The notes under the pieces are model-generated. The model saw only the letters and a list, made by a program, of their open reading frames with translations, made no database searches and had not been told where the DNA came from. From positions 975-64,974 of the forward strand of contig JBAQCQ010000093.1 of the NCBI GenBank assembly GCA_049294275.1: a stretch of DNA of 64,000 bases. Reading direction: 5' to 3'. Position 1 is the first letter of the stretch; each line of letters begins with the position of its first letter. Position numbers and translations under genes: made by a program. This stretch comes from Bacteroidales bacterium (lineage in GTDB: Bacteria > Bacteroidota > Bacteroidia > Bacteroidales > VadinHA17). This document shows, in pieces, positions 2,909 to 37,980 of the stretch.

Positions 2909-2960
2909 GTCCCCAACCGGCAGTCCCCAACCGGCAGTCCCCAACCGGCAGTCACCAGCC
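2909..2960 (+). repeat. 14-bp tandem repeat (GTCCCCAACCGGCA) x3.7; unit junction gives CGGCAGT
   Basis: Three exact copies at 2909-2922, 2923-2936 and 2937-2950, plus a partial GTCACCAGCC. Lies 58 nt downstream of the GT4 stop. Confidence 0.95.
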
Positions 2961-3000
2961 ACAATTAAGAATTAGGAATTGATAGTCAGCTTCTTAGAGA

Positions 3001-3030
3001 GGACTGTGGACTGAAGACTGAGATCAGTCC
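3001..3030 (-). repeat. Heptad repeat (YYNCAGT) x3-4 on the minus strand, starting at the stop codon of the GT2 gene
   Basis: Plus strand reads GGACTGT GGACTGA AGACTGA GATCAGTCC. Minus strand reads GGACTGA TCTCAGT CTTCAGT CCACAGT CC, and the TGA stop (3024-3026) lies inside the first unit. Confidence 0.8.
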
Positions 3031-3986
3031 TTTATGTTTAGCTTCTCCCTGATGAGATAACGGTTCCGGTCAGACGACCGGCGGTTGACAAGTTCGGCCA
3101 GGAAGCCGGTCAGGAAGAAGAAAGTACCAATAATCATCACTGCCAGTGCAATGTAAAAGAAAGGACTGTCTGTAACCAGTGGCGCCCTCAGATCCTGGTA
3201 AACATACACCAGCTTTCGTATACCGAGCCAGGCAGCCATTAGGAATCCGGTGATGAACATCAGTGTCCCGAAGGTGCCGAAGAAATACATCGGGCTCTTC
3301 CCGAAACGGGTGATGAAACTGATAGTAAGCATGTCAAGATAACCCTTCAGGAACCTGTCGAATCCGTACTTGGTCACGCCATACTTGCGCGGCTGGTGTT
3401 GCACCACCTTTTCGCCTATCTTTTTAAAGCCGGCCTCACGTGCAAGCATTGGAATGTACCTGTGCATCTCACCATACACCTCAATGTTCCTTACCACCTC
3501 ACCGTCATAGGCCTTCAGCCCGCAGTTGAAATCGTGCAGCCTGATGCCCGAAAATTTTCTCGCCGTGTAGTTGTAAAGCTTCGAAGTGGTCCTTTTAATG
3601 AACGGATCATATCTCCTCTTCTTCCATCCGGAGACAATATGATAACCTTCCCCCCGAACCATTTTGACCAGTTCGGGTATCTCATCAGGACTGTCCTGCA
3701 GGTCAGCATCCATAGTGATGACAACATCTCCGGAAGAGGCTTCAAAACCTGTCTGGAGGGCAGCGGCTTTGCCATAATTGCGGCGAAACCTGACTGCCCT
3801 TATCCTTGGGTTTTTACCAGACAGTTGGCGGAGCACCTCCCAGGTATTGTCAGAACTGCCGTCGTCAATCACAATCAGTTCATAGTCAAGTGAAGAGGCG
3901 ACACACACCCTGTCAATCCATCCGGAGAGCTCAGGGAGGGAATCAGCTTCGTTATACGCGGGGACTACGACGGACAGATCCATCAC
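3024..3986 (-). CDS. Glycosyltransferase family 2, polyprenyl-phosphate glycosyltransferase (GtrB/DPM1-like)
   Basis: 320 aa. VVVPAYNE, DDGSSD, DADLQD (DXD) and two C-terminal TM helices. Confidence 0.85.
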   Translation of the reverse strand: MMDLSVVVPAYNEADSLPELSGWIDRVCVASSLDYELIVIDDGSSDNTWEVLRQLSGKNPRIRAVRFRRNYGKAAALQTGFEASSGDVVITMDADLQDSPDEIPELVKMVRGEGYHIVSGWKKRRYDPFIKRTTSKLYNYTARKFSGIRLHDFNCGLKAYDGEVVRNIEVYGEMHRYIPMLAREAGFKKIGEKVVQHQPRKYGVTKYGFDRFLKGYLDMLTISFITRFGKSPMYFFGTFGTLMFITGFLMAAWLGIRKLVYVYQDLRAPLVTDSPFFYIALAVMIIGTFFFLTGFLAELVNRRSSDRNRYLIREKLNIKD

Positions 3987-4528
3987 AGCTTTGGTTCTTC
4001 TTCCACCTCATCAAGGAGAGGATTGCCTTTTTTCATTATAAACAGGGATACAACCAGAGACAGGATAAAACCCCAGAATATGCTCATAATTGTTGCCATC
4101 AGTGTGGTGAACCATGGTTTCATCATCTTGGCCTGCATCTCCATTCCCTTTTCGACAGCTTCCTCAGGTATGCCCTGTGCAATCATCTTCTCCTCGGCTA
4201 CTGCCAAAGATTTGTCGATAAGTCCCGGATCGATGAAGGCATAAAGCACATAAACGAATATTGCGGAAATCAGTGCTGCGTAAACGTTTATGACAACACC
4301 GGCGCCCACTGATTTTCCAAATGAGATATAACCGTTGTTGTAGTGATCACGGTATGAACGGAGCAGAAAGAAGAGGACAAGTACGGTGATCAGCAAGCTT
4401 GGCCAAATGATCCAGCTCTTGAATGTGAGATCAAACATGTAGGTCAGCAGCGAGAAGCCTACAGTAATAAGGCCGAGAATAATACCATAATTCAGAGTCT
4501 CTTTCCAGATTGATCTTTTTTGTTCCAT
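3983..4528 (-). CDS. DUF4199-like multi-pass membrane protein
   Basis: 181 aa with about four hydrophobic helices. Overlaps the downstream GT2 gene by 4 bp; this pairing is familiar from Bacteroidota. Confidence 0.6.
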   Translation of the reverse strand: MEQKRSIWKETLNYGIILGLITVGFSLLTYMFDLTFKSWIIWPSLLITVLVLFFLLRSYRDHYNNGYISFGKSVGAGVVINVYAALISAIFVYVLYAFIDPGLIDKSLAVAEEKMIAQGIPEEAVEKGMEMQAKMMKPWFTTLMATIMSIFWGFILSLVVSLFIMKKGNPLLDEVEEEPKL

Positions 4529-4606
4529 CTCAGGCAGTTTTTGGTTTTGAAAACAAATATAATCTATTTGCTTAAATCAATGCTGCCGGTAAATTAAGAT
4601 CCGGTG

Positions 4607-4638
4607 TTTGGTTCAAGGCTTAAAAGTTTGTACTTTTG
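4607..4638 (+). promoter_or_regulatory. Putative promoter of SRP RNA (-33 TTTG, -7 TACTTTTG)
   Basis: TTTG at 4607-4610 and TACTTTTG at 4631-4638 (TAnnTTTG), with a 20-nt spacer. The RNA starts about 4 nt downstream. Confidence 0.5.
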
Positions 4639-4641
4639 TGC

Positions 4642-4739
4642 GGGGTAAGTCTCATACGACCAGCTCCCTTTGAATTCCCCCAGGGTCGGAAGGCAGCAAG
4701 GGTAGAAGGTTGTAGCGGTGCGATGTGAGTAGCTTACCC
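4642..4739 (+). ncRNA. ffs: Signal recognition particle RNA (small, 4.5S-type)
   Basis: 5' GGGGTAAGTCTCAT pairs with 3' GTGAGTAGCTTACCC. The apical conserved motif is CCAGGGTCGGAAGGCAGCAAGGGTAGA (compare E. coli CAGGUCCGGAAGGAAGCAGCCAAGGCAG). A T-run follows at 4740-4747. Confidence 0.85.
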
Positions 4740-4795
4740 TTTTTTTATGCCCGCTCGCGGGAAGTTTATATATTTGCCGGCAGTTTGACGCAACG

Positions 4796-5410
4796 ATGAT
4801 ACTTAAGATCTATCCCGAGAATCCGAACGCCGATCATGTACGCAAGGTCACCTTCGTGCTTGAGCAGGGAGGTATCATCATATACCCCACTGACACCATC
4901 TATGCCATGGGATGCGATATAAAAGCGTCGAAGACAATAGAGAAGATCGCCCGTTTCAAGGGCCTCAATCCGGGCAATCCCGATATGTCGATGATCTTTG
5001 AATCAATGAGCCAGCTCTCGGAATACACCGTCATCCATGACAATAACCTCTTCAGACTTCTGAAACGCAATCTGCCGGGGGCATTCACGTTCATCGTCCC
5101 GGCGAACAACCAGATCCCGGCCATGTTCAGGCATCGCAAGAAGACGCTCGGGATACGCATACCCGATAACAGCATCACGCAGGCCATCGTCCGGGACCTT
5201 GGCAGGCCACTGGTAACCACATCGATACACGATAATGACGAGATCGTTGAATATATCACCGACCCGGAGCTAATTCATGAGAAGTACTATGATTTTGCCG
5301 ACCTTGTTGTTGACGGTGGCTTCGGGAGCAACGAACCGTCTACGGTTGTAGACTGCACCGGACCGGAGCCAGTCATACTGAGGCAGGGAAAGGGTGTGCT
5401 GGAGCTTTGA
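4796..5410 (+). CDS. tsaC: L-threonylcarbamoyladenylate synthase (TsaC/YrdC family)
   Basis: 204 aa. YPTDTIYAMGCD, LGIRIPD, TTSIH and PSTVVDC are YrdC-domain motifs. Confidence 0.85.
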   Translation: MILKIYPENPNADHVRKVTFVLEQGGIIIYPTDTIYAMGCDIKASKTIEKIARFKGLNPGNPDMSMIFESMSQLSEYTVIHDNNLFRLLKRNLPGAFTFIVPANNQIPAMFRHRKKTLGIRIPDNSITQAIVRDLGRPLVTTSIHDNDEIVEYITDPELIHEKYYDFADLVVDGGFGSNEPSTVVDCTGPEPVILRQGKGVLEL

Positions 5411-5411
5411 G

Positions 5412-5467
5412 CAGTCGGCAGTCCTCAGTCGGCAGTCCTCAGTCGGCAGTCCTCAGTCGGTAGTCCT
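5412..5467 (+). repeat. 14-bp tandem repeat (CAGTCGGCAGTCCT) x4, i.e. two alternating heptads CGGCAGT/CCTCAGT
   Basis: Copies at 5412, 5426, 5440 and 5454; the last has G>T. It fills the whole tsaC/trkA convergent spacer and overlaps the trkA stop by 2 nt. Confidence 0.95.
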
Positions 5468-6818: not shown

Positions 6819-6862
6819 TTCCGCTTTGATAAAAAACAGGGCAAAGTTAATTAAAAGAAATG

Positions 6863-8599: not shown

Positions 8600-8656
8600 G
8601 GGTCCACAGCTTTAGACCCGATAAAGTTAAATCAATAATGCAGTAAAGTCAACAGT

Positions 8657-9217: not shown

Positions 9218-9226
9218 TCTGTCACT

Positions 9227-9655: not shown

Positions 9656-9712
9656 TCCCTTTCAGTCTTTTCTTTTAGTTTTCCGCGCTGCAAATGTACC
9701 GGTTTCGAAGGA

Positions 9713-9745: not shown

Positions 9746-9765
9746 TTCATCTGAACTGTAAAATG

Positions 9766-12700
9766 TTATTCGGTCCGGGTCTCAGACGGTGCCTCGGCAG
9801 GAGCTTCGGCAGCACTGAAATCCATCTGTGAGAACCGTTTGTAGCTGTTGTATCTCCACCTGGCATTTTCCTCGGCCTGTTTGAACAGGTACTCAGCCTC
9901 ACCGGGGAAGTCCTTGAGGAGCGAAGTATAACGCACCTCTGACTTCAGGAAGTCCTGGAACTTGCTCCAGTCGGGCTCCTTCGAGTCGAGCTGGAACGGA
10001 TTCTTGCCCTCTGCCTCGAGGCGCGGGTCGAACCTGTAAAGGTGCCAGTACCCTGCTGCCACTGCGTCTTCCGACTGCTGCTGGGTCTTGCCCATACCGT
10101 TGCGGAGACCGTGGTTGATACAGGGCGAGTAGGCAATGATGAGTGACGGTCCGGGGTACTCCTCAGCCTCGCGTATTGCCTTGAAGTACTGGTTCTGGCT
10201 CGATCCCATTGCGACCTGTGCAACATAGACATAACCGTAGGTCATGGCCATCTGCCCGAGGTCCTTCTTGCGGATCTTCTTGCCTGAAGCAGCGAACTTG
10301 GCAACTGCGCCTGCCGGAGTCGATTTTGATGCCTGCCCGCCGGTGTTTGAATAGACCTCCGTGTCAAGCACAAGGACATTGATATTTTCACCTGAGGCAA
10401 GCACGTGGTCGAGACCACCGTAGCCTATGTCATAAGCCCAGCCGTCACCCCCGAAGACCCAGTATGATGTCTTCACCAGGTACTTTTTCAGGTCGAGGAT
10501 CTCCTTGCATACCGGAGCCTTATCCTTCTCACAGGCGGCGATCACCTTTTCAGAGACAGCCCTGCTGGTTTTGGTATTTTCCTTTTCAGCTATCCACTCA
10601 TTGAATGCAGCCACAGTCTCAGGTGCAATCCCTCCGCTGTTGAGGCTTTCCTTCATCATGCGCCCGAGGCGCTCCCTGATCTTCGTGGCACCGAGCAAAA
10701 GACCGAAGCCGTACTCAGCGTTGTCCTCGAAGAGCGAGTTGGCCCATGCCGGACCGTTGCCGTTCTTGTTTACCGTATAGGGCATTGACGGTGCCGAGCC
10801 GCCGTAGATTGATGAACAACCGGTGGCATTCGATATGACCATGCGGTCACCAAAGAGCTGCGTGATAGCCTTGATATAGGGTGTCTCACCGCAACCTGCA
10901 CATGCTCCGGAGAATTCGAAGAGAGGCTGTGCAAACTGTGAGTTCTTTACGTTGGTGTACTTGTTCACGATGGTATCCTTGTAACCGACCACCTCGTGCA
11001 TATAGGTCCATCTCTCCGCCTGCTCAAGCTGTGTCTCAAGAGGTTTCATGATGAGAGCCTTCTCCTTCGTGGGGCAAACATCGGCGCAGTTACCGCAGCC
11101 GGTGCAGTCATATACACTCACCTGGATCCGGAACTTGTGGCTCTTGGTGTTGCCGATACCCTGTTTGGCTGTCGTGCCGGCCGGTGCGGCTGCCAGCTCT
11201 TCATCGGTAAGGAGGAAGGGACGGATGGAAGCGTGGGGACAGACATATGAACACTGGTTACACTGGGTGCATTTGTCCATCTGCCACTCGGGAACGTTGA
11301 CGGCTATACCGCGCTTTTCGTAAGCGGCAGTACCGGCGGGGAAGGTTCCGTCTTCACGGCCGGCAAAAGCGCTTACCGGGAGATCATCACCCCTCATGCC
11401 ATTAATGACATCAACAACTTCACGGATGAACTTAGGCTTGCTGCCGTCAACCTTTTCCGCGGTCACATTTATTGATGCCCATTCTTTTGGAATTTTGACC
11501 TTTATCACGTCACCACCACGGTCGATGGCATCATTATTCATCTTTACAATGTTTTCGCCCTTCTTGCCATAAGCCTTGATAACGGCATGCTTCATCTCGT
11601 CAATGGCAAGCTGGTAGGGGATCACTTCAGATACTTTGAAGAAGGCGCTCTGCATGATGGTATTGGTCCTGGAACCAAGTCCGATCTCCTCCGCAATCTT
11701 CGTGGCGTTGATGATGTAGAAGCTGATATCGTTCTCTGCCAGGTACTTCTTCATATGGTCAGGAAGCTTTGTTAGTGTCTCCTCCGGCTCCCAGATGGAG
11801 TTCAGCAGGAAGGTGCCGCCTTTCTTGAGTCCCCTGAGCATGTCATACTTGTCGAGGTAAGCTGGCACGTGGCAGGCCACGAAGTCGGGCGTATTGACAA
11901 GATAGGGCGAACGTATCGGCTGGTCACCGAAGCGGAGGTGCGAGGTGGTCACACCGCCTGATTTCTTCGAGTCATAGGCGAAGTATGCCTGGCAGTATTT
12001 GTCGGTAGTATCGCCGATGATCTTGATGGAGGCTTTGTTTGCGCCAACGGTGCCGTCGGCACCGATGCCGTAAAACTTGGCCGAGTAGGTTCCCTTATGG
12101 CTTACGTTTATCTCAGGGAGCAGAGGAAGTGACCTGAAGGTAACGTCGTCAACGATCCCTACGGTGAACTGGTTCATGGGCTTCTCCTTCTTCATATTCT
12201 CGAAGACAGAGATCATCTGTGCCGGGGTGGTGTCTTTTGAGCTCAGACCGTACCGGCCGCCGACGATCATCGGACGGGTGGCCCTGTCGTAGAACACCTC
12301 AGAGACATCGAGGTAGAGTGGCTCGCCGTTTGCGCCAGGTTCCTTTGTGCGGTCAAGCACGGTGATGCGCTTCACGCTCTTCGGCAGTACGTTGAAAAGG
12401 TATTTTGCCGAGAAGGGCCTGTACAGATGCACCGATATGAGGCCGAGCTTTTCACCTCTGGCTTCAGCAAGGTAATCGATCACCTCCTTGATTGTTTCGG
12501 TCACCGATCCCATTGCAATGATTATGTTTTCGGCATCGGGTGCACCGTAGTAGGTGAAGGGCTTGTACTGGCGGCCGGTGAGCAGGGAGATCTTTTCCAT
12601 GTACTCATTGACCGTATCGTCGAGGTTGGCGTAGAAGGGATTTGATGCCTCCTTGGCCTGGAAGAAGATGTCAGGGTTCTGTGCTGTTCCCCTGGTAACG

Positions 12701-13341: not shown

Positions 13342-13417
13342 TTCTGATCATGAATGATTAGTGTTCAAATAACCTTTAAAAAAATAAACTGCAAATTTAC
13401 GGATTTTCTCCGACATT

Positions 13418-15619
13418 TTATTCGCTGTTCATTGAAATCAGAAACTCCTCATTTGAGCGTGTCTGGGTTATACGGTCACGCAGGAATTCCATTGCTTCCA
13501 CTGAATTCATGTCAGTGAGGTAGTTGCGGAGGATCCAGATCTTGCTCAGCATATTCCTGTCGAGCAGCAGGTCTTCGCGCCGCGTGCTTGAGGCCGGGAT
13601 GTCTATCGACGGGAATATTCTCCTGTTTGACAGTTTTCTGTCAAGCTGGAGCTCCATGTTACCGGTTCCCTTGAACTCTTCAAAGATCACGTCATCCATC
13701 TTGGAGCCTGTGTCTGTAAGGGCGGTGGCGATGATTGTAAGTGAGCCTCCGTTTTCTATATTCCTGGCTGCACCGAAGAACCTCTTCGGTTTATGCAGTG
13801 CGTTCGAATCGACACCACCGGAGAGAACCTTGCCCGATGCCGGGGCTATGGTGTTGAAGGCCCTGGCGAGGCGAGTTATGGAGTCAAGCAGAATGACCAC
13901 ATCATGACCGCATTCGACCAGGCGCTTGGCCTTCTCCTGCACTATGGTGGCGATGCGCACGTGCCTCTCGGCAGGCTCGTCAAACGTTGAGGCGATGACC
14001 TCGGCGTTGACGTTGCGGGCCATCTCTGTAACCTCCTCGGGACGTTCATCTATCAGGAGGATCATAAGGTAAACCTCCGGATGGAATTTGGCGATGGCGT
14101 TGGCTATGTCCTGAAGCAATATCGTTTTTCCGGTCTTCGGCTGCGCCACAATAAGACCGCGCTGGCCCTTTCCAATCGGGCAGAACATGTCTACAATGCG
14201 CACTGACAGGTTTCCTTCCCCCGGTCTGCACAGGGTGAATTTCTCATTCGGGAAGAGAGGGGTGAGGTAATCAAACGGCACCCTGTCACGGATGAAGTCG
14301 GGGGTGCGGCCATTGATCTCTTCGACCTTTATCAGCGGGAAATATTTCTCGCCCTCGCGGGGAGGACGGATGGTGCCCCTGATGGTGTCACCGGTCTTGA
14401 GCCCGAAAAGTTTTATCTGCGACTGTGAGACGTAGATGTCATCGGGTGAGCTGAGGTAGTTGTAATCAGGAGAACGGAGGAACCCGTATCCGTCGGGCAT
14501 TATCTCAAGCACCCCGGTATTTGCTACGATACCTTCGAAATCGTATGCTCTTTCCCTTCTCTCTTCCCTGACAGGCTCAGGCATATTCTGATGACCGTTC
14601 ACTGCCTCATCGGCTGCAGAAGGAAGGACCACCGCAGTATCCGGTGCTGCTGCTTCGCCCATAATGCTGGTATCATTTTCAGCCTCGCTGAGCCTGAGCA
14701 GATCCTGTTCATTTTCATTGCCGTTTGCATCAGCATATAAAAGCTTTTCAGACTGAACATTGGGTTGCTCCTGATCGCTTTCTTGCTGCTGAGGCTGTTG
14801 CCGGGATTGAGGTTGAGGTTGTGGCTGTGGCTGTGACTGTGGCATTGGTTGGGTCTGATATGGTTCCCTGGCCTGAGTACCCGGGGCAGCAGGTTGCTGC
14901 TGTGGCTGGCGTTCATCCTCGGGCCTGCGCTGTGGAGGCTGATCATTATTGTTTGTACGGGGGCGCTTATTGCGGTTTTGCTGCCACTTCTGCTGTTGCT
15001 GGGGTCTCTGTTGCTGAGGTGGTCTCTGTTGCTGCTGAGAACCCTGCTGCTGCTGAGGACCCTGTTGCTGCTGAGGACCCTGCTGCTGCTGAGGACCCTG
15101 CTGCTGCTGAAGTCTCTGTTGCTGGGGACCCTGCTGCGGCTGACCCTGCGGCATTCCCTGCTGTGGACCCTGCTGCGGCTGACCCTGCGGCATTCCCTGC
15201 TGCGGCTGGCCCTGCTGAGACTGTATCGGAGGTTGCTGGTTCCGGGGCCGTTGCTGGTCAGTCTTTGGCACCGGATGTTGCGGCTGTTTTTGCTGCCGGG
15301 GGTCCTGTGACTGTGGCTGCCTCTGTGGCTGCCTTTGCGGTTTCGGCCCCCTGGGCTGCTGTTGTTGCTGAGGCTGCTGCGGCCTGGGCCTGTCAGCCTG
15401 TTTATGCTGCCGGGGCGGACTTTCCTGCTGCCGCTCTGCCGGTGCGTTTTCGCTTCTGCCCGATTTGCGGGCATCGGTAGCATCTATCGCCTGCTGGTCA
15501 AGAATCTTGTATATAAGATCCTGCTTCTTGAGGAGCTCTGCCCTCTTAATTTTGAGCTGCTTCGCTATTTCCCGCAATTCGGGAACAAGCATTTCGCTCA
15601 GTTCAAGAATATCATGCAT
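13418..15619 (-). CDS. rho: Transcription termination factor Rho with a ~310 aa insertion (Gln/Pro-rich core, acidic tail) in the N-terminal domain
   Basis: 733 aa. Rho_N ([18 protein letters not shown]), CSD-like ([14 protein letters not shown]), Walker A ([15 protein letters not shown]) and LIDERPEEV. Residues ~47-358 are low-complexity. Confidence 0.95.
15031..15203 (-). repeat. In-frame tandem DNA repeats inside rho: 5 x 18 bp (15031-15120) and 2 x 39 bp (15126-15203)
   Basis: The 18-bp unit GCTGCTGAGGACCCTGCT (plus strand) encodes QQQQGP-type hexapeptides. The two 39-bp copies differ at one base and encode [13 protein letters not shown] twice. Confidence 0.9.
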
Positions 15620-21871: not shown

Positions 21872-21900
21872 CCGGTTTGCCGGGCAATTTAAAGTCACAT

Positions 21901-21937
21901 AAAAAGAGAGAGAAGCCACTGACCTCCCTCTCTTTTT
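21901..21937. terminator. Possible bidirectional terminator between the SiaC-like gene and gap
   Basis: AAAAAGAGAG (21901-10) pairs with CTCTCTTTTT (21928-37) around a 17-nt loop. The stem is A/T- and GA-rich, so it is weak. Confidence 0.35.
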
Positions 21938-21957
21938 ATTAATACTATATGATAAGC

Positions 21958-25078: not shown

Positions 25079-25082
25079 CGCA

Positions 25083-25117
25083 GGCAGTAGGCAGTAGGCA
25101 GTAGGCAATAGGCAGTA
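25083..25117 (+). repeat. Heptad tandem repeat (GGCAGTA) x5, one GGCAATA variant
   Basis: Starts 4 nt after the msrAB TAG stop. Copies at 25083, 25090, 25097, 25104 (variant) and 25111. Confidence 0.95.
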
Positions 25118-25195
25118 GCGGAGAAATTGCCCGCAGGGCATTATGTTATAAATATAATCATTCCACGTAGAGGATTAAGTATTGTAGCGGTCTAT

Positions 25196-25235
25196 CAAAC
25201 AAAAAACCGGCCCTGGTTAGAGAGCCGGTTTTTGT
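25196..25235. terminator. Bidirectional intrinsic terminator between msrAB and the BNR-repeat gene
   Basis: A-run, then stem AACCGGC / GCCGGTT, then T-run (AAAAAACCGGCcctggttagagaGCCGGTTTTT). Confidence 0.7.
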
Positions 25236-28666: not shown

Positions 28667-29425
28667 ATGAACAACACCTATTTTACCAGGAGAACGGTCA
28701 GGAAATATGAGGAGAAGGATGTTGACAACAGCCTGCTTGAAGGGATCCTCACTGCCGGCACGCGGGCTTCCACCACTGGAAACATGCAGGTATACAGTAT
28801 AATAGTGACCCGTGACCGGGAGATGAAGAGCCGGATGGCACCGGCACACTTCAACCAGCCTATGGTGACTGAGGCGCCGGTGGTTCTGACCTTCTGCGCC
28901 GACTTCAACAGGTTCAGCCGATGGTGCCGTCAGCGTGAGGCTGAACCGGGTTATGACAACTTTCTGTCGTTCATGACGGCCGCGATAGATGCACTGCTGG
29001 TCGCACAGACCGTTTGCAACGCTGCCGAGGAAGAGGGGCTGGGAATATGTTACCTGGGGACTGTGACCTATAATGCTGATCAGATTATTGAAGTTCTTAA
29101 ACTGCCGCGTGGTGTCGTACCTGTTGCCACCGTAACAATGGGCTGGCCGGCGCTGGTGCCTGAACAGCCTGACAGGCTGCCGCTGGAGGCTGTCGTGCAT
29201 CATGAGACCTACCGTGATTATACAGATGAGATGATTGATGATATCTACAGGGCGAAGGAGGCACGGGAGGATACCCTTCAGTTCATTGCCGAAAATAAAA
29301 AACAGACACTTGCACAGGTCTTCACCGACGTGCGCTACCGGAAGGCAGACAATGAGTTCTTCTCCTCAAAGTACCTGGAGGTAATCAGGAGGCAGGGATT
29401 CCTTGGGGAAGGCAGTAGGGAGTAG
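28667..29425 (+). CDS. Nitroreductase-family NAD(P)H oxidoreductase
   Basis: 252 aa. RRTVRKY, TTGNMQ, FNQPMV and LGICYLG fit the nitroreductase fold. The last codons and TAG stop lie in a heptad repeat. Confidence 0.75.
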   Translation: MNNTYFTRRTVRKYEEKDVDNSLLEGILTAGTRASTTGNMQVYSIIVTRDREMKSRMAPAHFNQPMVTEAPVVLTFCADFNRFSRWCRQREAEPGYDNFLSFMTAAIDALLVAQTVCNAAEEEGLGICYLGTVTYNADQIIEVLKLPRGVVPVATVTMGWPALVPEQPDRLPLEAVVHHETYRDYTDEMIDDIYRAKEAREDTLQFIAENKKQTLAQVFTDVRYRKADNEFFSSKYLEVIRRQGFLGEGSRE

Positions 29426-29438
29426 GCACCAGGCAGTA
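29411..29438 (+). repeat. Degenerate heptad repeat GGCAGTA GGGAGTA GGCACCA GGCAGTA
   Basis: Four phased units. The nitroreductase stop TAG (29423-25) is formed at a unit junction. Confidence 0.8.
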
Positions 29439-29447
29439 GTCGGCTGT

Positions 29448-30536
29448 CTACCTTTGATCCTGAAATGCAAATCCCAGCTCGGCGGCAACGTTGCGGAGGT
29501 CGTCAACCACGGCGGGGACCAGTTGTATCCCGGACTTCCTGTTAATTTCCTCAGCCTCCCGCTCGGGATCACCGGGAATCAATACTCTCGTCTCACCCTT
29601 TATTGGTTTAGCATTTCGGAATGTTCTTATCCACTTGTCCATTGAGCTCTTGAATTCATCAGCCGGTCTGAAGGCATCGATACGCATTGCTCCGAAAAAA
29701 TGGCCGGTACCCTTCCCGACCTGATTCCCGGGTACAGGCAGGTAGGCTACGCTTGGCGGCACAAATGGTCCGAAGTTGGCTCCGCTAAAGACCGAACTGA
29801 AGATATCGACGACTGCAGCCATGCAGTAACCCTTGTGGCTCCCGTGAAGACGGTCGCCGCCGAGCGTGAGCATCCCGCCTCCCCGGCGGAGTATGCCCGG
29901 ATCGTCTGACGGGTTGCCCTCGGCATCCTGTACAAACCCCAGCGGAATCTTCTCGCCCTTTTTCTCCGACACGGCCAGCTTGCCCCGGGCTATGGGGGTG
30001 GTGGCGAAATCTGCAATGAAAGGAGGTTCATGCAGTGCCGGTACCGCCACTGCAAGAGGATTGGTGCCAAGATAGCGGCTCACAGACCAGGTGGGAACAA
30101 CAAGCGGATTGGCGTTGGTGACGCATATCCCTGTCATGTCATGCTCAAGCGCCATCATGGCATAGTACCCGGCGATGCCGAAGTGGTTTGAGTTGCGTGC
30201 CGCCACCCAGCCTGTACCTGTGGCAGCTGCCTTCTCAATGGCCAGTTTCATCGATCTCACGCCTGATATCATCCCGAAGGACCTGTCGCCGTCGATCACG
30301 GCAGTAGAAGGGGTCTGGTGCACCACCTTCACATCGGGAGTGACATTCACCCGCCCGCTCTTCCACAGCTCATAATACTCCCTGATTCTTATCATACCGT
30401 GTGATGAGTGTCCGCGCAGCTCGGCCGCTATCAGCACCGAGGCAACGGTACCGGCATCCTCGCGGCTGCAACCGATGCGCATGAAAACGTCAGTGGTGAA
30501 TTCTAAAAGATACTTATGATCATACATACTGGTCAC
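29448..30536 (-). CDS. Ldh_2-family (malate/L-lactate/ureidoglycolate dehydrogenase type 2) oxidoreductase
   Basis: 362 aa. [19 protein letters not shown] and GSHKGY motifs. Confidence 0.8.
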
Positions 30537-30540
30537 CGGA

Positions 30541-30561
30541 ATTTGCTATTTGCGATTTATT
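30541..30561 (-). repeat. Degenerate heptads (minus strand AATAAAT CGCAAAT AGCAAAT) just upstream of the Ldh_2 start
   Basis: Plus strand reads ATTTGCT ATTTGCG ATTTATT. Same ATCGCAA/CGCAAAT unit as at 41233-41253. Confidence 0.6.
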
Positions 30562-30568
30562 TGGTATC

Positions 30569-30718
<150 letters not shown>

Positions 30719-30728
30719 TATTAGACTA

Positions 30729-33700
30729 CTATTTCCTGACGCGTACCGGATATGGCGGGCGAACAGGCTGAGCAGGCGGGTTTTTCCCGAGCTCCCTGAG
30801 GGCCACCTCAATGGCCTTCTCAAGTTGCGGATCCTTTCCCTCTATGACATCGGCAGGCCATTGTTCGACCTCTATGTCAGGTGCCACTCCCACATTTTCA
30901 ACGATGAAACCATCCTCAGTCCAGATAGCCAGGTTGGGGGCTGTCACCCCACCTCCGTCCATCAGTTCGGGAAAGCCGAGAGTCCCCACCAGGCCTCCCC
31001 ATGTGCGTTTGCCTACGAGTGTCCCCACCCCGAACTTCCGGAACATCCAGGGAAGCATGTCACCTCCCGATCCGGCTGTCTCGTCGATGATCATGACCTT
31101 GGGCCCCTGAATCGAGGCGCTGGGCGTCTTCAGATCCCTGCCGTAGCGCATGTTCCAGTACGACTGCAATGGCCGCTGCAGCAGATCAATGTAGTAGTCG
31201 GCAATCGAACCCCCGCCATTGAACCTTTCGTCAATGATGATGGCCTGCCTGTCAGCCTGCGGGAAGAAGTACCTCTTGAAGTATTCGTGTCCCTGTCCCG
31301 ATGTGTTGGGCACATATACATAGGCTACCCTTCCGTTCGTGGCTTCCGTCACCCTTCGCAGGTTCCTCTCCACCCAGTCGCGGTTCCGGAGTCCGCTTTC
31401 GCTGCCTACCGGGACAACCTTTATCACCCTTGAACCCTCGTAACCGGGGTTTGGCCCGACAGTCAGTTCAACTATCTTGCCGTCAGTATTTTCGAGGTAA
31501 CTGTGAATATTTTTATCACCTGTCACATCCCTGCCGTCGATGGCGAGAATATACTCGCCCTCCTTCACGTTGAGTCCGGGTTCTGTCAGCGGCGACCTGA
31601 GATCAGGATTCCAGTTAAGTCCTCCGAAGATTTTCTTCAGCCGGTAGCGGTTGTTCTCGATGCTGAAGTCGGCGCCGAGCAGTCCGCCGCCGACGCGCGG
31701 CGGTGTGGCCAGCCTGTCGCCTCCGCCCACCCTGTGGTGACCCACCGCCAGCTCACTGCACATCCACTGTATCACGCGGTTGAGATCGCTTCTGCAAGCG
31801 ATGTCAGGCAGGAACTGAGAGTATTTTACCTTCATTGCATTCCAGTCGGCACCGTGCATCCCCGGGTCATAGAAGAAATCGCGGTTGATCCTCCAGGCCT
31901 CATCGAAAATCTGAGGCCACTCGGCGACAGGGTCTATCTTCACCGTCAGGGCTGCAGTGCTGAGGATTCCCTTGCCGGGTTCCGGCTTCTTTCCGGCTGC
32001 GGTGATGCCAAATATCCGGCCCTTGCTATAGAGCATCTTTTTCCTGTCAGCGGAGACAATGTAGTTGTCGAGTTCCATGATCTCCTCGTCCTTCCTCTCC
32101 TTTACATTATACCTTCGCAGGGTCGAGGAGCCCTCTCTCTGCTGCGGCCTTACAATATACAGTATCTCACCGGTGGCTGCCACTCCGAGCCCGGAGTAAT
32201 TGCCGGCGGATACGGGAACATTGACTATCCTGTTCTGGATGCCGTCGGTTTCGATCTTCAGCTGTCCGCTCTTCATCTCAGAGGCCGGAGCTTTTTTCGG
32301 ATCCTTTTTTGCCGTTTTGGAGGCGGCATCGGTTAAGGGTTTTTCAGCTTCATCCTTCTGCTCCGTTCCCTTCTCTTCATCGCTCTCCTTGACAAATGGC
32401 GAAACGATATCTTTCGTCAGGGTAACGAGGTAGATTGAGTTGGTGCTCCTCATATCGAGTGCTGACAGATCGAACCAGTTTATTACCGGCCCTGCATCGG
32501 TTGAGGCAAAGAAGTACAGGAACTCCCCGTTGGGATCGAAGACCGGCTCAGAGGCATCGCTGAGTCCGTCTGTCACCTGGAACGATTTCTGCTGGTCAAC
32601 GGAATAGAGCCGGACAACCTTGAAGTATGTAGGCATCATCTTTGTATAGACTATCCACCTTGAATCGGATGACCAGTCACCGAACATACCCCTGAATGCT
32701 CCCGGGAAGTACAATTCGTCAGAATCTATTTTATTGATTTTTCCTGAAAGGATATCAATTATGTAAAGGTTTCTTCCGTTGTCAGTGAAGCATATTTTTT
32801 TACTGTCGGGTGACCATTTCGGGAAGGCATAGAATCCTGTTCCGGGAAGGGTGAAGATCCTTGGATCTCCCTTGCCGTCCTGCTGTCTGAGGTGAAGAGT
32901 GTACTCTCCGGAGGCATCGGAAAAATAAGCGATGGTTTTTCCGTCAGGAGACCATGCCGGGTATTTTTCATGAGCCCCGGTAGTGAGTGTTATGTTCCTG
33001 GGGTCTCCTTTTTCTGCAGGGAGGGTGATGATATCTCCCCTGAAACCGAAGACTGCGCGCGAGCCGGTGGGGGAGATGTCAGCGCTGCGGATATATGACG
33101 GACCCTGAACATAGCGGGGCCTCAGTTCAAGGAGGTCAGCGGCAATGGATACTGTCAGCTTCCTGGCCGTGCCTGTCCGGGTGTCAAATGAATGAAGATA
33201 ACCTGCCTGTTCGTAGACTATCATGCCATCGCCTTCAGAGGCTTTCAGCACAGGGAAATCGTTGTGGTTTGTAAGCTGGCGTACGTCACCACCTTTGTCA
33301 TCACAGGAGAAGAGGTTGAACTCTCCGTTCCTGTCGCTCAGGAAAAAGACCCGGTCACCGGTCCACACCGGCTCAACGTCATTGCAGCCGCCTGCGGGCT
33401 GCGGGATCTTCGCCACCGACCGGTCTGCAAAGGTGTAAAGCCATATTGTCGAGACTGTTCCTCCCCTGTAGTTCTTCCACTGTCCGAAGGCCGGGTAGAG
33501 GGGATTGTATGCTATCCTTCCGCCGTCAGGTGAGTATGTTGCATCGTAGGCGTTGGGGATCTCAAGCTGTACGGGATAATCTCCCCTGATGCTTACTGTA
33601 AACAGTTGTGTATACCTGCCGGAGAATGACGACCGCTGTGAGGTAAAGAGAACACGTGTTCCGTCGGGGGTGAAGCCTCTGACAACATCGTTCCCCGGAT

Positions 33701-34031
33701 GCCAGGTGAGTCTCACCGGCACTCCTCCTTCGACAGGTATCACGAATAGGTCTGTGTTGCCGTCATACTGGGCACTGAAGGCAATCAGTTTCCCGTCAGG
33801 CGAGAAGCAGGGGTCGGATTCTATTCCCTCATCCACGGTCAGTCGCCTGGGGGCAGAGCCGTCTCTGTTAATAACCCAGAGATCCTCCGCATAGATGAAT
33901 GCGATATGTGATGAGCTGACTGCCGGCTGTGACATCATCCTGGTGTCAGATGTGTTGACGGCATTCAGATCCTGTGCTGCGACGAACAGCAGGACAGTGA
34001 TCAGGAGTGTGAATGATGATTTTCTTTTCAT
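30729..34031 (-). CDS. Tricorn-protease-like S41 peptidase (beta-propellers + PDZ + S41 domain)
   Basis: 1100 aa with a signal peptide. TolB-like repeats (SPDG.. motifs), a PDZ region and a C-terminal S41 block ([21 protein letters not shown]). Confidence 0.8.
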
Positions 34032-34798: not shown

Positions 34799-34864
34799 GG
34801 GTTATATGTTTCAGAGGGGTAAATTTAAACATTATTTAGGGTATCTTTGGCCCGCAATTGCAAA

Positions 34865-35590
34865 ATGATGCCTGAAAAAAAAGAACAGAAAGGAGCTCCC
34901 CGTGAACAGGTCGAGGCGATGTTCGATTCAATATCGGGTCATTATGACAGGCTCAACCGTATCCTCTCGCTGGGCACCGACAGGCGCTGGCGCAGGAAGG
35001 CGGTCAACCTTATCGGGCTGCATATCAGGCCGGTGACCATGCTGGATGTGGCAACCGGGACGGGAGACCTGGCTATTGCAGCCCTGCGGCTCGGACCGCG
35101 CAGCATAACAGGGATAGACATAAGCGAAAAGATGCTTGATGAGGGTCGCCGGAAAATAATCCGAATGGGGCTCGGAGATAAAATCACTCTTGCCAGGGGC
35201 GACTCACGCCTCATTGAATTCAGCGACGGGACATTTGACGTGACGATGTGCGCCTTCGGGGTGAGGAATTTTGAAGACACACTGACCGGGCTGCGGGAGA
35301 TGTGCAGGGTCATCAGGCCGGGAGGGATGGTAATGGTGCTGGAGTTTTCAAAGCCGTCATTGTTCCCGCTGAAGCAGATATACGGACTCTACTTCAGGAG
35401 AGTTCTTCCGCGCATCGGGAGGATCGTATCGGGTGACCCCGGCGCATACACTTACCTGCCTGATTCGGTGATGGCGTTTCCCGACAACGAACGGTTCCTG
35501 GAACTGCTTGCCACAGCAGGATTCAGAGAGGTGAAACAGAAGAAACTGACGGGAGGAATAGCCAGCATTTACTATGGATTCAGACCATGA
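34865..35590 (+). CDS. menG: Demethylmenaquinone / ubiquinone methyltransferase (UbiE/MenG)
   Basis: FDSISGHYDRLNR, DVATGTGD (SAM motif I), FGVRNF. ATG at 34865 is preferred over TTG at 34847. Confidence 0.85.
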   Translation: MMPEKKEQKGAPREQVEAMFDSISGHYDRLNRILSLGTDRRWRRKAVNLIGLHIRPVTMLDVATGTGDLAIAALRLGPRSITGIDISEKMLDEGRRKIIRMGLGDKITLARGDSRLIEFSDGTFDVTMCAFGVRNFEDTLTGLREMCRVIRPGGMVMVLEFSKPSLFPLKQIYGLYFRRVLPRIGRIVSGDPGAYTYLPDSVMAFPDNERFLELLATAGFREVKQKKLTGGIASIYYGFRP

Positions 35591-35651
35591 ATCCCTTTAC
35601 CACAACAAATAGTGCTTTAATTCGTTGTAATTTTTAGGACTCTTCGTAATT

Positions 35652-36344
35652 GTGAATAAAAAAACTGCCATATTTCTCTTTCTGCTTATTCCTGTAGTGA
35701 TGACAGCACAGAAAGCGAAACCCAAGAATGACTCGAATTACGACGAGAGGCTGTTGCATTTCGGCTTCAGCATGGGTGTCAACACCATGGATTTCAACAT
35801 AAAGATGGCCGGTGAGTCGGGCCTGGTTGCCGAGGTGGTATCGCTTAAACCCGGCCTGAATATCCAGATTGTCACTGACTACCGCCCCTCAACCTATCTT
35901 GACTTCAGGTTCCTCCCGGGGGTGTCGTTCGGACAGCGGAACATAAATTTTTACCAGGACGGTGTTGCCTGGGGTGAGACGCAGGTCCTGGAATCATCAT
36001 TCCTTGAATTTCCTCTTCTTTTGAAGGCCAAGGGGATGAGGCTCAACAACGCCAGGCCTTACCTGATAGGCGGAATGAACTTCAGGTACGACCTTGCGGG
36101 CAAGAAGGAGTATGATGATACAAGAAATGTTTACATGAGGCTGAAGAGAGCCGACTTTTACTATGAGGCCGGGGCCGGCATTGACATTTACCTTCCTTAT
36201 TTTAAGCTTACCATAGAAGCCAAGATGTCAAACGGACTGCGTGACGTGCTGGTGCATGAGCCTGATGACCGTCATCCTGAATATGTCAGCGCTATCCAGT
36301 CGCTGAGGTCCCAGTTATGGGTACTCTCGTTCCATTTTGAATAG
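35652..36344 (+). CDS. PorT-family outer-membrane beta-barrel protein (possible T9SS PorT/SprT)
   Basis: 230 aa, GTG start, signal peptide ending TAQ, C-terminal ...LSFHFE. Its position directly after ubiE/menG recalls porT/sprT loci. Confidence 0.6.
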   Translation: MNKKTAIFLFLLIPVVMTAQKAKPKNDSNYDERLLHFGFSMGVNTMDFNIKMAGESGLVAEVVSLKPGLNIQIVTDYRPSTYLDFRFLPGVSFGQRNINFYQDGVAWGETQVLESSFLEFPLLLKAKGMRLNNARPYLIGGMNFRYDLAGKKEYDDTRNVYMRLKRADFYYEAGAGIDIYLPYFKLTIEAKMSNGLRDVLVHEPDDRHPEYVSAIQSLRSQLWVLSFHFE

Positions 36345-36346
36345 AG

Positions 36347-37885
36347 ATGGCTGAGGAGCTGAACCTGGTCCTGCCGCCACAGACAGCCTTCGACGAGGAT
36401 GCCCTGAGGCAATACCTTGCCAGGAGAACCGGCAGGAAGGATTTCACCATGCGGATAGTCAGAAGATCGGTCGATGCACGTAAGCCTGAGATCAAAATAA
36501 ACCTTACCGTTCAGCTTGCCGGACCGGATGAACCCCCGGAGGTGATACCTCCTCTTAAAATCAGGGATGTTTCACGTGCAAGGGAGGTGCTTGTTGCAGG
36601 CAGCGGTCCTGCAGGTCTTTTTGCGGCGCTGACCCTGATTGAGGCGGGATTGAAGCCGGTCATACTTGAGCGGGGCAGGGAGGTGAGAGAGCGCAAGCGC
36701 GATGTGGCGTCAATCAGCACTAAACACATAGTCGATTCCGATTCAAATTATTGTTTCGGTGAGGGTGGCGCCGGAACATTCTCTGACGGGAAGCTCTACA
36801 CCAGATCGAAGAAGAGGGGCGACAATCGCCGTGTACTGGAACTGCTGGTTCTCCACGGGGCCGATCCGGCCATTCTTTATGAGGCTCACCCACACCTCGG
36901 TACTGACAGGCTTCCCGGGATTATCAGCGCGGTACGCGGGAGCATCACAGCGGCTGGTGGGGAGGTGCTTTTCGGGAGACGGATAACGGGCCTGTCAATT
37001 GAGGAACGGACCTTCAGGGGGGTGACGGTAAACGGAAATGAGCTGATCAGGGCTGATGATCTCATTCTGGCCACAGGCCACTCGGCAAGGGATATCTACA
37101 GGATGCTGCTTGCCGCAGGCGTGAGGCTTGAATTCAAACCTTTTGCCATGGGTGTAAGGGTTGAGCACCCGCAGGAACTGATTGACATGATACAGTATCA
37201 CGGCAAGGCGAGAGGCCAGTATCTCCCGGCTGCGGCGTACACCCTTGTCACCCGGGCTGATGGCAGGGGCGTGTATTCATTCTGCATGTGCCCGGGTGGC
37301 TTCATGGTGCCCTCGGCAACGAGTCCCGGCGAAGTAGTGGTGAACGGGATGTCGCCTTCGCGGCGCAACTCACGGTGGGCCAACAGCGGCATTGTCAGCG
37401 AGATACGGGAAGAGGATGCAATGCAGTATGGCAGTGGTCCGCTTGCCGCAATGGAATACCAGCTTTTTCTTGAGCAGATGGCATGGAGGGAGGGAGGCAT
37501 GACGCAGCGTGCTCCGGCCCAGCGACTGACAGATTTTGTTGACGGCAAGGCCTCGGCGACATTACCCGAGGGGTCTTATTTCCCGGGGCTGACTGCCTCA
37601 CCGCTGCACGAATGGCTGCCGGCCGATATTGCCCTGAGGCTGCGTCAAGGATTCAGGGATTTCGGGAGGAAGATGAATGGATACCTTACGGACCAGGCTC
37701 TCGTGGCAGCGGTGGAATCGCGGACCTCCTCACCGGTCCGTATAACCCGTGACCCTGATCATCTGAATGCACTGAATATAGCCGGCTTATTCCCTGCAGG
37801 TGAAGGAGCCGGTTATGCGGGCGGCATTGTCTCGTCAGCAGTTGACGGAATGCTTGTTGCACAGGCAATAGGCAATAGGCAATAG
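36347..37885 (+). CDS. FAD-dependent oxidoreductase (COG2509-like)
   Basis: 512 aa. Dinucleotide-binding VAGSGPAGLFAA and C-terminal FPAGEGAGYAGGI. The last four codons plus TAG stop lie in a heptad repeat. Confidence 0.7.
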   Translation: MAEELNLVLPPQTAFDEDALRQYLARRTGRKDFTMRIVRRSVDARKPEIKINLTVQLAGPDEPPEVIPPLKIRDVSRAREVLVAGSGPAGLFAALTLIEAGLKPVILERGREVRERKRDVASISTKHIVDSDSNYCFGEGGAGTFSDGKLYTRSKKRGDNRRVLELLVLHGADPAILYEAHPHLGTDRLPGIISAVRGSITAAGGEVLFGRRITGLSIEERTFRGVTVNGNELIRADDLILATGHSARDIYRMLLAAGVRLEFKPFAMGVRVEHPQELIDMIQYHGKARGQYLPAAAYTLVTRADGRGVYSFCMCPGGFMVPSATSPGEVVVNGMSPSRRNSRWANSGIVSEIREEDAMQYGSGPLAAMEYQLFLEQMAWREGGMTQRAPAQRLTDFVDGKASATLPEGSYFPGLTASPLHEWLPADIALRLRQGFRDFGRKMNGYLTDQALVAAVESRTSSPVRITRDPDHLNALNIAGLFPAGEGAGYAGGIVSSAVDGMLVAQAIGNRQ

Positions 37886-37898
37886 GCAATAGGCGATA
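37864..37898 (+). repeat. Heptad tandem repeat (GGCAATA) x4 + GGCGATA
   Basis: Copies at 37864, 37871, 37878, 37885 and 37892. The FAD-oxidoreductase stop TAG (37883-85) is a unit junction. Confidence 0.95.
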
Positions 37899-37949
37899 AT
37901 AAGTTTTTAGCCTTCAGTCTTCAATCATCAATAAATCAGTGACTTACAT

Positions 37950-37980
37950 CGGCTGCCGGCTGCCGGCTGCCGGTTGCCGG
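37950..37980 (-). repeat. Heptad tandem repeat, plus strand (CGGCTGC) x3 + CGGTTGC + partial; minus/sense strand (CCGGCAG)n
   Basis: Begins 2 nt after the TGA stop (37983-85) of the minus-strand TrmH-family gene. Confidence 0.9.

Follow-up and report, generated by a model that had tools for sequence, protein, structure and literature searches.

Heptad arrays of the window and the genes that they adjoin

The DNA analysed here, hereafter called the window, is a stretch of 64,000 nt from a Bacteroidales bacterium (Bacteroidota; assembly GCA_049294275.1, contig JBAQCQ010000093.1, positions 975 to 64,974), whose genome has a G+C content of ~52%. Its spacers contain direct-repeat arrays with a period of 7 or 2x7 nt, hereafter heptad arrays. 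According to Pfam, the open reading frames (ORFs) flanking these arrays are real housekeeping genes, functionally unrelated to one another: GT1 and GT2 glycosyltransferases, Sua5, TrkA, MsrAB, Sortilin/BNR, nitroreductase, Ldh_2, tricorn protease, an FAD protein and SpoU. An initial annotation, made from the letters of the window, had listed eight arrays and considered that they mark gene 3' ends. Seven of them are recovered by Tandem Repeats Finder (TRF) and the eighth (given as 3001-3030) by direct reading. Reading of every spacer, with calculation of its lag-7 identity, added four blocks, which brings the total to 12 heptad blocks within 42 kb of the window, in spacers with a lag-7 identity of 0.60-0.82 (Table 1). 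The arrays have between 3 and 21 copies, and the distribution shows no peak at four. GGCAATA is, as had been noticed, a minority unit in two arrays (1/5 units at 25083 and 3/21 at 30571) and the majority unit in a third, at 37864.

Table 1. Heptad arrays of the window, with their gene context, and other features located on it
Feature	Coordinates	Strand	Basis	Context and remarks
(CGGCAGT CCCCAAC) x3.5	2909-2957	plus	TRF period 14, 97% matches	Convergent spacer; begins 58 nt past stop of GT1 glycosyltransferase gene (1675-2850, +)
TCTCAGT CTTCAGT CCACAGT CC	3001-3023	minus	Read directly; under TRF threshold; pattern match 3003-3020	Directly follows TGA (3026-3024) of GT2 gene (3024-3986, minus); mRNA strand C-rich
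(CGGCAGT CCTCAGT) x4.0	5411-5467	plus	TRF period 14, 97%; spacer lag-7 identity 0.73	Occupies entire 55-nt spacer between Sua5 (+) and TrkA (-) stops; gene assignment ambiguous
(GGCAGTA) x5.3	25082-25118	plus	TRF, 93%	3 nt past MsrAB stop; within 3' untranslated region, upstream of terminator
Degenerate GGCAGTA GGGAGTA GGCACCA GGCAGTA, 4.3 copies	29410-29439	plus	TRF, 73%	Includes nitroreductase stop codon (29423-25); 8 nt from opposite-strand Ldh_2 stop
Degenerate AATAAAT CGCAAAT AGCAAAT	30541-30561	minus		Upstream of Ldh_2 start; C>G on mRNA strand; not in initial annotation
(GGCAGTA) x21.3 with three GGCAATA units	30570-30718	minus	TRF, 95%	10 nt past tricorn protease stop, ~46 nt before probable Ldh_2 ATG
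(GGCAATA) x5.1	37863-37898	plus	TRF, 96%	Includes stop (37883-85) of FAD-dependent protein gene
Degenerate CTTCAGT CTTCAAT CATCAAT AAATCAGT	37912-37940	plus	Lag-7 identity 0.60	Mid-spacer, between arrays 37863-37898 and 37950-37980; not in initial annotation
(CCGGCAG) x4.4	37950-37980	minus	TRF, 95%	2 nt past SpoU methylase stop
TCGATTT TCTATTG TCGATTG CCGATTG	41194-41221	plus	Read directly	Begins 5 nt past Omp85/BamA stop; not in initial annotation
(ATCGCAA) x2.7	41233-41251	plus	TRF	Inverse partner of 41194-41221; C>G on mRNA strand, upstream of gene starting 41290; not in initial annotation
Canonical bidirectional terminator hairpin (A-run, 13-bp stem, T-run)	25196-25232	no strand	Sequence and terminator scan	Shares convergent spacer with array 25082-25118; not a repeat-family member
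tmRNA gene	1-330	minus		Incomplete, runs off window start
Small SRP RNA, Bacteroidales-type	4636-4743	plus	110 bits	Strongest taxonomic indicator in window

The arrays are real and far beyond chance. When the window was scanned against a shuffled expectation, three CAGT cores in 7-nt register (pattern CAGTNNNCAGTNNNCAGT) gave 18 matches for 0.02 expected in dinucleotide shuffles, and three GGCAR cores in 7-nt register (pattern GGCARNNGGCARNNGGCAR) gave 26 matches for 0.00 expected. A short-read assembly could misjudge the copy number of the 147-bp array, and chance matches or assembly artefacts could in principle account for the arrays; besides the shuffles, this is opposed by the similar arrays found at the same spacers in independent assemblies and by arrays of at least three GGCARTA units in contigs of 0.4-1.6 Mb from metagenome-assembled genomes (L002, L006, L020, L027), so that we regard its probability as negligible.

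At all eight arrays initially listed, the strand bearing CAGT or GGCAG is the sense strand of the gene whose stop codon adjoins the array, as had been claimed. The distance to that stop, array by array in order, is 58, 0, 0, 3, overlap, 10, overlap and 2 nt, in agreement with the 0-60 nt or overlap first described. Arrays are present in 5 of the 7 convergent spacers of the window; of the two array-free ones, one is just 8 nt long and the other (21872-21957) contains a plain hairpin terminator. None of the divergent spacers of the window contains an array. Of the eight arrays initially listed, seven are in convergent spacers, the array 30570-30718 being the sole one between co-directional genes. 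As any orientation is sense to one neighbour in a convergent spacer, the rule there amounts to the array being closer to its sense gene, and the window by itself is thus weak evidence for an orientation rule: tested on its eight arrays, two of which are ambiguous, the sense rule gives p = 0.008-0.03.

No single sequence rule accounts for all the blocks of the window. CAGT on the sense strand is broken by 41194-41221, which carries ATTG on its sense strand and is an exception to the CAAT/CAGT rule. An excess of G over C on the sense strand is broken by 3001-3023 and 5411-5467. Formulated as G>C after a stop and C>G before a start, polarity is respected by 7 of the 10 window blocks adjoining a stop or immediately preceding a start, the exceptions being the C-rich 3001-3023 and 5411-5467 and the array 37950-37980, in which G is about equal to C. 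TCAGT-type arrays of the window have their stop codons on the antisense strand. A cause linked to the replication strand was rejected, as opposite orientations are found less than 100 bp apart (2909/3001 and 37863/37950).

Position and strand polarity in independent loci

The comparison set consisted of the window and 200 loci. Of these, 120 are the listed loci of a scan for (GGCARTA)3, made on one genome per species, which gave at least 120 loci and whose phylogenetic counts are lower bounds; none of those listed overlaps the window, and an exact-protein search with Ldh_2 gave no match. The other 80, totalling 737 kb, come from a metagenome protein scan with Ldh_2; they were selected by gene and not by repeat, and include syntenic relatives with 82-92% amino-acid identity. 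Genes were called with a simple longest-ORF caller of our own. ORFs over-extended through the stop-free strand of an array were trimmed; before trimming, 19 arrays appeared to lie in ORFs, most of them in the first 8% of the ORF, and trimming changed the sense:antisense count in tandem spacers from 30:14 to 29:22. The same effect is seen in the window, where the plus-strand ORF of 305 aa at 30516-31433 is spurious and owes its existence to the TACTGCC strand of the 21-copy array, which has no stop codons; more generally, such strands lead to spurious or over-extended ORFs. On the minus strand, the start of Ldh_2 is probably ATG 30524 (MYDHK; compare MYDHN in L121), rather than GTG 30536.

Among the matches listed, (GGCARTA)3 is found in Bacteroidales, Chitinophagales, Saprospiraceae, Flavobacteriaceae and cyanobacteria, and also in Thermoguttaceae, Pyrinomonadaceae, Vicinamibacterales, Mesorhizobium and others. 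In these listed loci, the arrays of convergent spacers are nearer the sense gene in 23 cases and nearer the antisense gene in 4 (p = 3e-4), those of tandem spacers are sense in 29 cases and antisense in 22, which is not significant, and 19 arrays lie in divergent spacers. A second count of tandem spacers across phyla gave 35:37, and the antisense arrays of tandem spacers adjoin the downstream start codon. When only Bacteroidota loci with at least three GGCARTA units are considered, convergent spacers give 9:0 in favour of the nearer gene being the sense one, tandem spacers 10 sense to 4 antisense, and arrays downstream of a gene at contig edges 6:1 in favour of sense. About 17 of the 53 sense arrays provide the stop codon of the upstream gene (first classification). 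The rule first proposed is thus confirmed in independent loci and is clearer in Bacteroidota alone; across phyla, it does not stand for tandem spacers, where antisense arrays are found at starts.

All these results concern one unit. When units of any sequence are considered, 7 is the commonest tandem-repeat period in the gene-chosen loci, with 70 arrays, followed by 14 (16 arrays) and 21 (8 arrays). Of the 290 period-7 arrays in the window and the 200 loci, 12 are inside ORFs, and 123 have a stop codon and 44 a start codon no more than 25 nt away. In the gene-chosen loci, convergent spacers are the most often occupied by arrays (27.5%), followed by tandem (11%) and divergent ones (5%; convergent versus divergent, p = 8e-5). 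These results show that the arrays survive almost only in untranslated DNA abutting the end of an ORF and, in the window, mostly in the stretch between stop and terminator of convergent pairs.

Polarity was then counted leaving out the arrays that match the search pattern. On the mRNA strand, arrays within 25 nt past a stop have G>C in 57 cases and C>G in 11, and this bias is reversed in arrays located further than 25 nt past a stop (20:67). Arrays within 25 nt before a start are C>G in 21 cases and G>C in none. Array-free spacers give G>C:C>G counts of 208:198 past stops and 229:342 before starts, so that the polarity is a property of the arrays and not of local base composition. When two arrays are paired in one spacer, the order is [G>C][C>G] in 69 cases and the reverse in 2, irrespective of gene orientation (convergent 17:0, tandem 32:2, divergent 8:0). 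The arrangement first seen at the convergent pairs of the window, with a plus-sense left array and a minus-sense right one, is the convergent case of this order. Unpartnered arrays are nearer the ORF that lies 5' of their G-rich strand in 94 cases, versus 28. The marking of 3' ends is therefore half of a wider polarity rule, and the rule described for the heptamers of Xanthomonas and Nostoc (Rehm et al., 2015; PMC4692102) generalises to many phyla and many unrelated units.

A stop codon is present on the sense strand in 74% of stop-adjacent arrays and on the antisense strand in 49%, for a calculated expectation of ~29% in a random heptamer. Past a stop, the mRNA strand of the arrays is not only G>C but in most cases also carries a stop codon that comes to lie in each of the three frames, and pre-start arrays are C>G. 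Frame closing by stop codons is nevertheless insufficient as the sole explanation, as 8 of the 10 stop-adjacent arrays with stop-free units on both strands are still G>C, and the TCAGT-type arrays of the window have antisense stops. Healing of double-strand breaks by a telomerase-like 3' extension of both ends was also considered, since it fits the converging order of pairs. It predicts arms that touch centrally with unique DNA outside, and it was rejected because the arms abut the ORFs and the unique DNA or terminator is central; the diversity of units within one genome further argues against a fixed template.

Turnover between relatives

Array presence, unit sequence and copy number all vary at orthologous spacers, as judged from the window and loci L121-L128. 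In the spacer between the tricorn protease and Ldh_2 genes, the 21 GGCAGTA units of the window are replaced in L121, whose Ldh_2 is 92% identical, by CACCAGT CCACAGT CGGCAGT CGGCAGT followed by (GACTGAA)6. L122 and L124 have other units there, and L125 and L126 have a spacer of 19 nt without any array. L125 and L126 are metagenomic strains with 98.6-99.9% identity; of the 103 differences between them, 45 are located within the 200 nt with arrays, including gaps of 6 and 13 nt. All these results show that arrays turn over quickly, by gaps of approximately one or two repeat units. The units GGCAGTA, GGCAATA, CGGCAGT, CCTCAGT and CGGCAAT are intermixed within single arrays (L121 7442-7558), which agrees with the initial view of one evolving family. 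Arrays with a period of 8 nt (GCAAGACY, GRGACTAA) are found among the heptad arrays of the same spacer (L124 ~3830-3930, L130 ~9840-9875), so the slippage step is not strictly seven. As a separate observation, about two thirds of the tricorn protease gene is deleted internally in L125 (2917-4047, compared with L126 4113-7421).

Such variability raises the question of contingency loci, in which a neighbouring gene would have its expression, or its C-terminal tail, switched on and off by slippage. In favour of this, arrays vary strongly from strain to strain, one of them has 21 copies upstream of Ldh_2, and 7-bp repeats control hmw1A/hmw2A in Haemophilus (PMC8262952). Against this, the arrays are at 3' ends, not in promoters or 5' coding parts, and their neighbours are housekeeping enzymes, not surface or restriction genes, contrary to what is expected of phase-variable loci. 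Moreover, arrays overlapping an ORF end close the three frames within 21 nt, so that slippage alters a few C-terminal residues at most. A contingency role appears highly improbable.

In relatives, the sortilin/MsrAB spacer is arranged as stop, array, canonical terminator, array and stop. The arrays there lie between stop and intrinsic terminator, and are therefore inside the 3' untranslated region (3' UTR). They could be functional 3'-UTR modules, in which an unstructured, purine-rich (GGCAGUA)n would offer multiple binding sites to an RNA-binding protein or to the ribosome, protecting the 3' end or shielding it from Rho. The close position of the arrays past the stop, in sense orientation and before the intrinsic terminator, so that they are transcribed with the gene, is consistent with such a role, as are the post-stop bias far above the array-free background, the persistence of arrays at the same spacers of relatives despite sequence turnover, the recurrence of GGCAGTA across phyla and the transcription of most Xanthomonas repeats (PMC4692102). 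It is opposed by the lack of conservation of unit, copy number and presence, L125 and L126 being array-free at the tricorn-Ldh_2 spacer, by the unrelated housekeeping functions of the adjacent genes, and by the absence of any sense excess in tandem spacers across phyla. Furthermore, many unrelated units follow the same rule, which argues against one sequence-specific binder. We therefore hold 3'-UTR modules to be unlikely, and the binding platform that the initial annotation had envisaged is unlikely in a conserved, sequence-specific form, as unit, copy number and presence differ between close relatives.

RNA structure and terminators

As had been noted, the arrays are direct repeats that form no hairpins in themselves, and canonical terminators occur separately from them (for instance, the one sharing the spacer of the MsrAB array). 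Pure direct arrays are predicted to be unstructured as RNA, single arrays giving z-scores of +0.5 to -0.8 relative to shuffles; the (GGCAGUA) run at 30600-30720 reaches z -2.1, via scattered 2-bp contacts only and with an unpaired centroid. Facing arrays of one spacer with complementary units are predicted to form zipper hairpins. In L121 (6140-6265), the predicted fold is a zipper of 5-bp helices with 2x2 loops between them (dG -43.8 kcal/mol, z -5.6). Four tandem spacers from Pyrinomonadaceae, Vicinamibacterales and Thermoguttaceae are near-perfect heptad hairpins from stop to start (L052:5232-5366, L043:3070-3212, L053:6155-6270 and L061:6316-6402; z -6.7 to -11.4), and variant units are mirrored between the two arms in L052.

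These folds suggest that arrays could be the arms of long, REP/BIME-like hairpins, the inverse pairs acting as bidirectional terminators, mRNA stabilisers or translational couplers and the single arrays being remnants. Of the 46 inverse-complementary pairs, 42 are ordered [G>C][C>G] and 2 the reverse; the arms of tandem spacers span from stop to start; and the STRR hairpins located between hupS and hupL, for which a role in transcript stability or translational coupling was proposed, provide a precedent (PMC2670836). In the window, the pair 37863/37950 is predicted to pair through its GGCAR cores, although weakly (z -2.1 on the plus and -1.3 on the minus strand). Most window arrays have no complementary partner, however: 5411, 25082 and 30570 are unstructured, and the region 2895-3035 is no better than shuffles (z -0.4). 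The fold at 41233-41251 is not significant (z +0.6). In L125, L126 and L128, the arrays flanking the sortilin/MsrAB terminator are not mutually complementary either.

No U-tract follows any of the window arrays checked as intrinsic terminators, nor is there one after the arms. A canonical terminator is present in 9 of the 19 convergent spacers with arrays (47%) and in 24 of the 50 without (48%). The arrays thus neither replace nor accompany canonical terminators; a substitution for these was rejected because their frequency is equal with and without arrays, and the boundary element suggested initially receives no support from the same statistics. Taken together, hairpin arms as the general function of the arrays seem improbable.

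Origin of the arrays and of their polarity

The arrays are hypermutable heptad simple repeats with a strict polarity. We consider it probable that they are driven by slippage, tolerated beside ORF ends and filtered in their orientation by the mRNA. Such arrays would arise by slipped-strand mispairing, and their orientation would reflect a selection filter acting on the transcript, with no sign of a conserved binding site. An array at an ORF end would be harmless only if its sense strand closes every frame at any copy number; 7 being coprime to 3, one stop per unit closes all three frames. Past a stop, C-rich naked RNA would invite premature action of Rho, which loads on C-rich, G-poor naked RNA and whose gene is present in the window (13418-15619). 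Before a start, G-rich leaders would hinder translation initiation; G-poor leaders are generally favoured, since the array-free background before starts itself leans towards C. Unit variants such as CGGCAGT and CCTCAGT could be descendants that inherited the orientation of a parent GGCAGTA array. C-rich CAGT arrays are often located downstream of a GGCAGTA block (L055, L124), which suggests that orientation is inherited within an array.

Several points weigh against slippage filtered by the transcript. The bias exceeds what stop-codon content explains, as seen with stop-free units, and the C-rich CAGT arrays 3001-3023 and 5411-5467 violate the G>C rule. GGCAGTA is found in at least 120 species of many phyla, which would be unexpected for random local seeds, and the variant units mirrored in the perfect hairpin arms of L052 imply an active maintenance of pairing. 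Finally, the forces attributed to Rho and to leader structure are drawn from general knowledge, and the gene calls come from a simple longest-ORF caller.

One alternative is that the polarity law seen across phyla, by which the G-rich strand reads away from the nearest ORF end and pairs converge, reflects an RNA-level function or a directional generating mechanism and not passive tolerance. We hold this as a tentative possibility. Examples may be Rho-shielding, purine-rich 3'-UTR arrays combined with G-poor leader arrays, stop-start coupling hairpins, or a templated copying from one arm to the other that would preserve the mirroring of variant units. In that case, the CAGT-core family would be a Bacteroidales lineage-specific version, and its C-rich variants might be putative Rho utilisation (rut) sites in two convergent spacers devoid of terminators (2851-3023 and 5411-5465).

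The two possibilities differ in their consequences. The polarity, previously described in three genomes, is here extended to numerous phyla and to many units unrelated in sequence. If it results from transcript selection, the arrays offer a natural record of what is tolerated in 3' UTRs and leaders, for example as regards Rho, translation initiation or frame closure. If it results from directional mutation, the process would be a hitherto unknown one. In either case, the arrays are hotspots of strain-level variation and assembly uncertainty. Heptanucleotides are the commonest long simple repeats of prokaryotes, and why they are polar is a question worth pursuing.

Other features of the window

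Rfam shows no RNA family overlapping any of the window arrays. The Rho gene (minus strand, 733 aa) encodes a Rho_N domain at aa 6-44 and an RNA-binding domain starting only from aa 368; the low-complexity insert of ~320 aa between them derives from tandem repeats of 18, 39 and 54 nt, with repeats at 14990-15221, and presumably corresponds to the long disordered insertion typical of Bacteroidetes Rho. Just 3' of the last heptad blocks are a gene for a ComEA-like helix-hairpin-helix protein (41290-42285, +) and, close by, a gene for a XerC/D-type tyrosine recombinase (42577-43458, +); neither has an apparent link with the repeats. Further on (43898-45693 and 48765-56908), a tRNA cluster Thr-Tyr-Gly-Thr is followed by Trp and then by a long series of plus-strand ORFs, including two very large ones of 3.8 and 4.3 kb, of the size of rpoB and rpoC. 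The half of the window with this cluster and these large ORFs has short spacers and no heptad arrays.

Relation to known repeats

The initial annotation had not recognised the arrays as a described element. The same position and strand bias is in fact described for other heptamers (PMC4692102), and heptamer repeats have been reported in Bacteroidetes (PMC4679880). Several classes are compared below.

Like REP, BIME and REPIN elements, the arrays gather at gene 3' ends and between convergent genes, include inverted hairpin doublets and are co-transcribed with the upstream gene. REP units, which RAYT transposases spread, are imperfectly palindromic and 20-40 nt long, whereas the window units are 7-nt direct repeats. 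No Pfam match to an IS200/IS605-type (RAYT) transposase is found among the 28 window ORFs scanned. In addition, orthologous sites carry unrelated units that change by slippage, which sets the arrays apart from this class.

The cyanobacterial STRR sequences are closer, as intergenic tandem heptamers with a CAGT core and a capacity to form hairpins between adjacent genes. Their units reportedly include CCCCAGT and CAACAGT, and are said to go back to work by Mazel and co-workers in 1990. The phylum and the units are different here: the STRR1-3 heptamers of filamentous cyanobacteria (CCCCAGT, TTGGTCA and CAACAGT) are no commoner in the window than expected by chance (1-3 occurrences per strand), so that the arrays are not STRR sequences in the strict sense.

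The TAACTGA direct repeats were described in Beggiatoaceae, cyanobacteria and five Bacteroidetes (MacGregor, 2015; PMC4679880). The forward strand of TAACTGA closes all reading frames and its reverse strand is open; these repeats are almost all intergenic, biased in orientation and located mainly 1-43 nt upstream of starts, on the forward strand, and a role in translational regulation was proposed by the author. The same study noted further heptamer repeats in Bacteroidetes spacers and 7-nt indels between strains (PMC4679880). The window arrays share with this system their heptamer direct repeats, and the reverse complement of TAACTGA, TCAGTTA, contains CAGT; they differ from it by their unit and by following stop codons, and the TRF output of the window contains no TAACTGA array. 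Beyond MacGregor (2015), nothing was found in the literature on GGCAGTA-type repeats or on heptad-repeat function in Bacteroidetes.

The survey of Mrazek et al. (2007), summarised in PMC4679880, ranks heptanucleotides first in abundance among the long prokaryotic repeats of 5-11 nt, with a sporadic phylogenetic distribution, and polymerase slippage over a 7-nt contact was proposed as their cause. That survey reportedly did not describe the strand and ORF-end polarity found here.

The nearest relatives are the heptamers GGGAATC of Xanthomonas and GGGGAYT of Nostoc (Rehm et al., 2015; PMC4692102), of which the latter is complementary to CCCCAGT, the STRR1 unit of cyanobacteria. These repeats are enriched in non-coding DNA and depleted between divergent ORFs. 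Their G-rich strand is coding up to ~50 nt past a stop and non-coding up to ~50 nt before a start, and they are nearer the 5' neighbouring ORF in either ORF orientation, some of them overlapping its stop. Their length and sequence vary among close relatives, their neighbours are unrelated housekeeping genes, and no function was assigned to them (PMC4692102).

GGGAATC and GGGGAYT repeats form G-quadruplexes (G4) in vitro, four units being preferred (PMC4692102). The arrays of the window could accordingly be G4 or R-loop elements, in which the G-rich non-template strand or RNA would pause polymerases leaving the ORF, all the more as the polarity rule is itself defined by G>C. However, no G run exceeds GG in GGCAGTA and GGCAATA, and such runs are few or absent in the other window units, which would allow a weak two-tetrad G4 at best and is at variance with the strict definition of a G4 repeat (at least four tracts of at least three G, with a four-unit preference). 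Copy numbers do not favour four, and C-rich CAGT arrays occupy the same position. We judge G4 or R-loop elements to be very unlikely.

The window arrays resemble the Xanthomonas and Nostoc repeats by their tandem 7-nt units, their numerous arrays of related, non-identical units, their overlap with stop codons and some inverted pairs, and they share with them every property tested for heptanucleotide simple repeats, i.e., direct units of 7 or 2x7 nt, excess in non-coding DNA, polarity and variation at the same spacer. They differ in their host, which belongs to Bacteroidota, in their units (GGCAGTA/GGCAATA, with CGGCAGT, CCTCAGT and CCGGCAG), which are devoid of GGG tracts and make G4 formation doubtful, in the lack of preference for four copies, and in being richest in convergent and not in co-directional spacers. 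Their C-rich CAGT variants keep the orientation yet break the G-rich rule; and in Nostoc, GGGGACT, with ACTG and not CAGT, is the sense strand past stops, the opposite of the CAGT rule of the window. Finally, the window arrays belong to the described class of fast-changing bacterial heptad simple repeats. What is new here is their occurrence in a Bacteroidales-like lineage and the unit family GGCAGTA, CGGCAGT and CCTCAGT.

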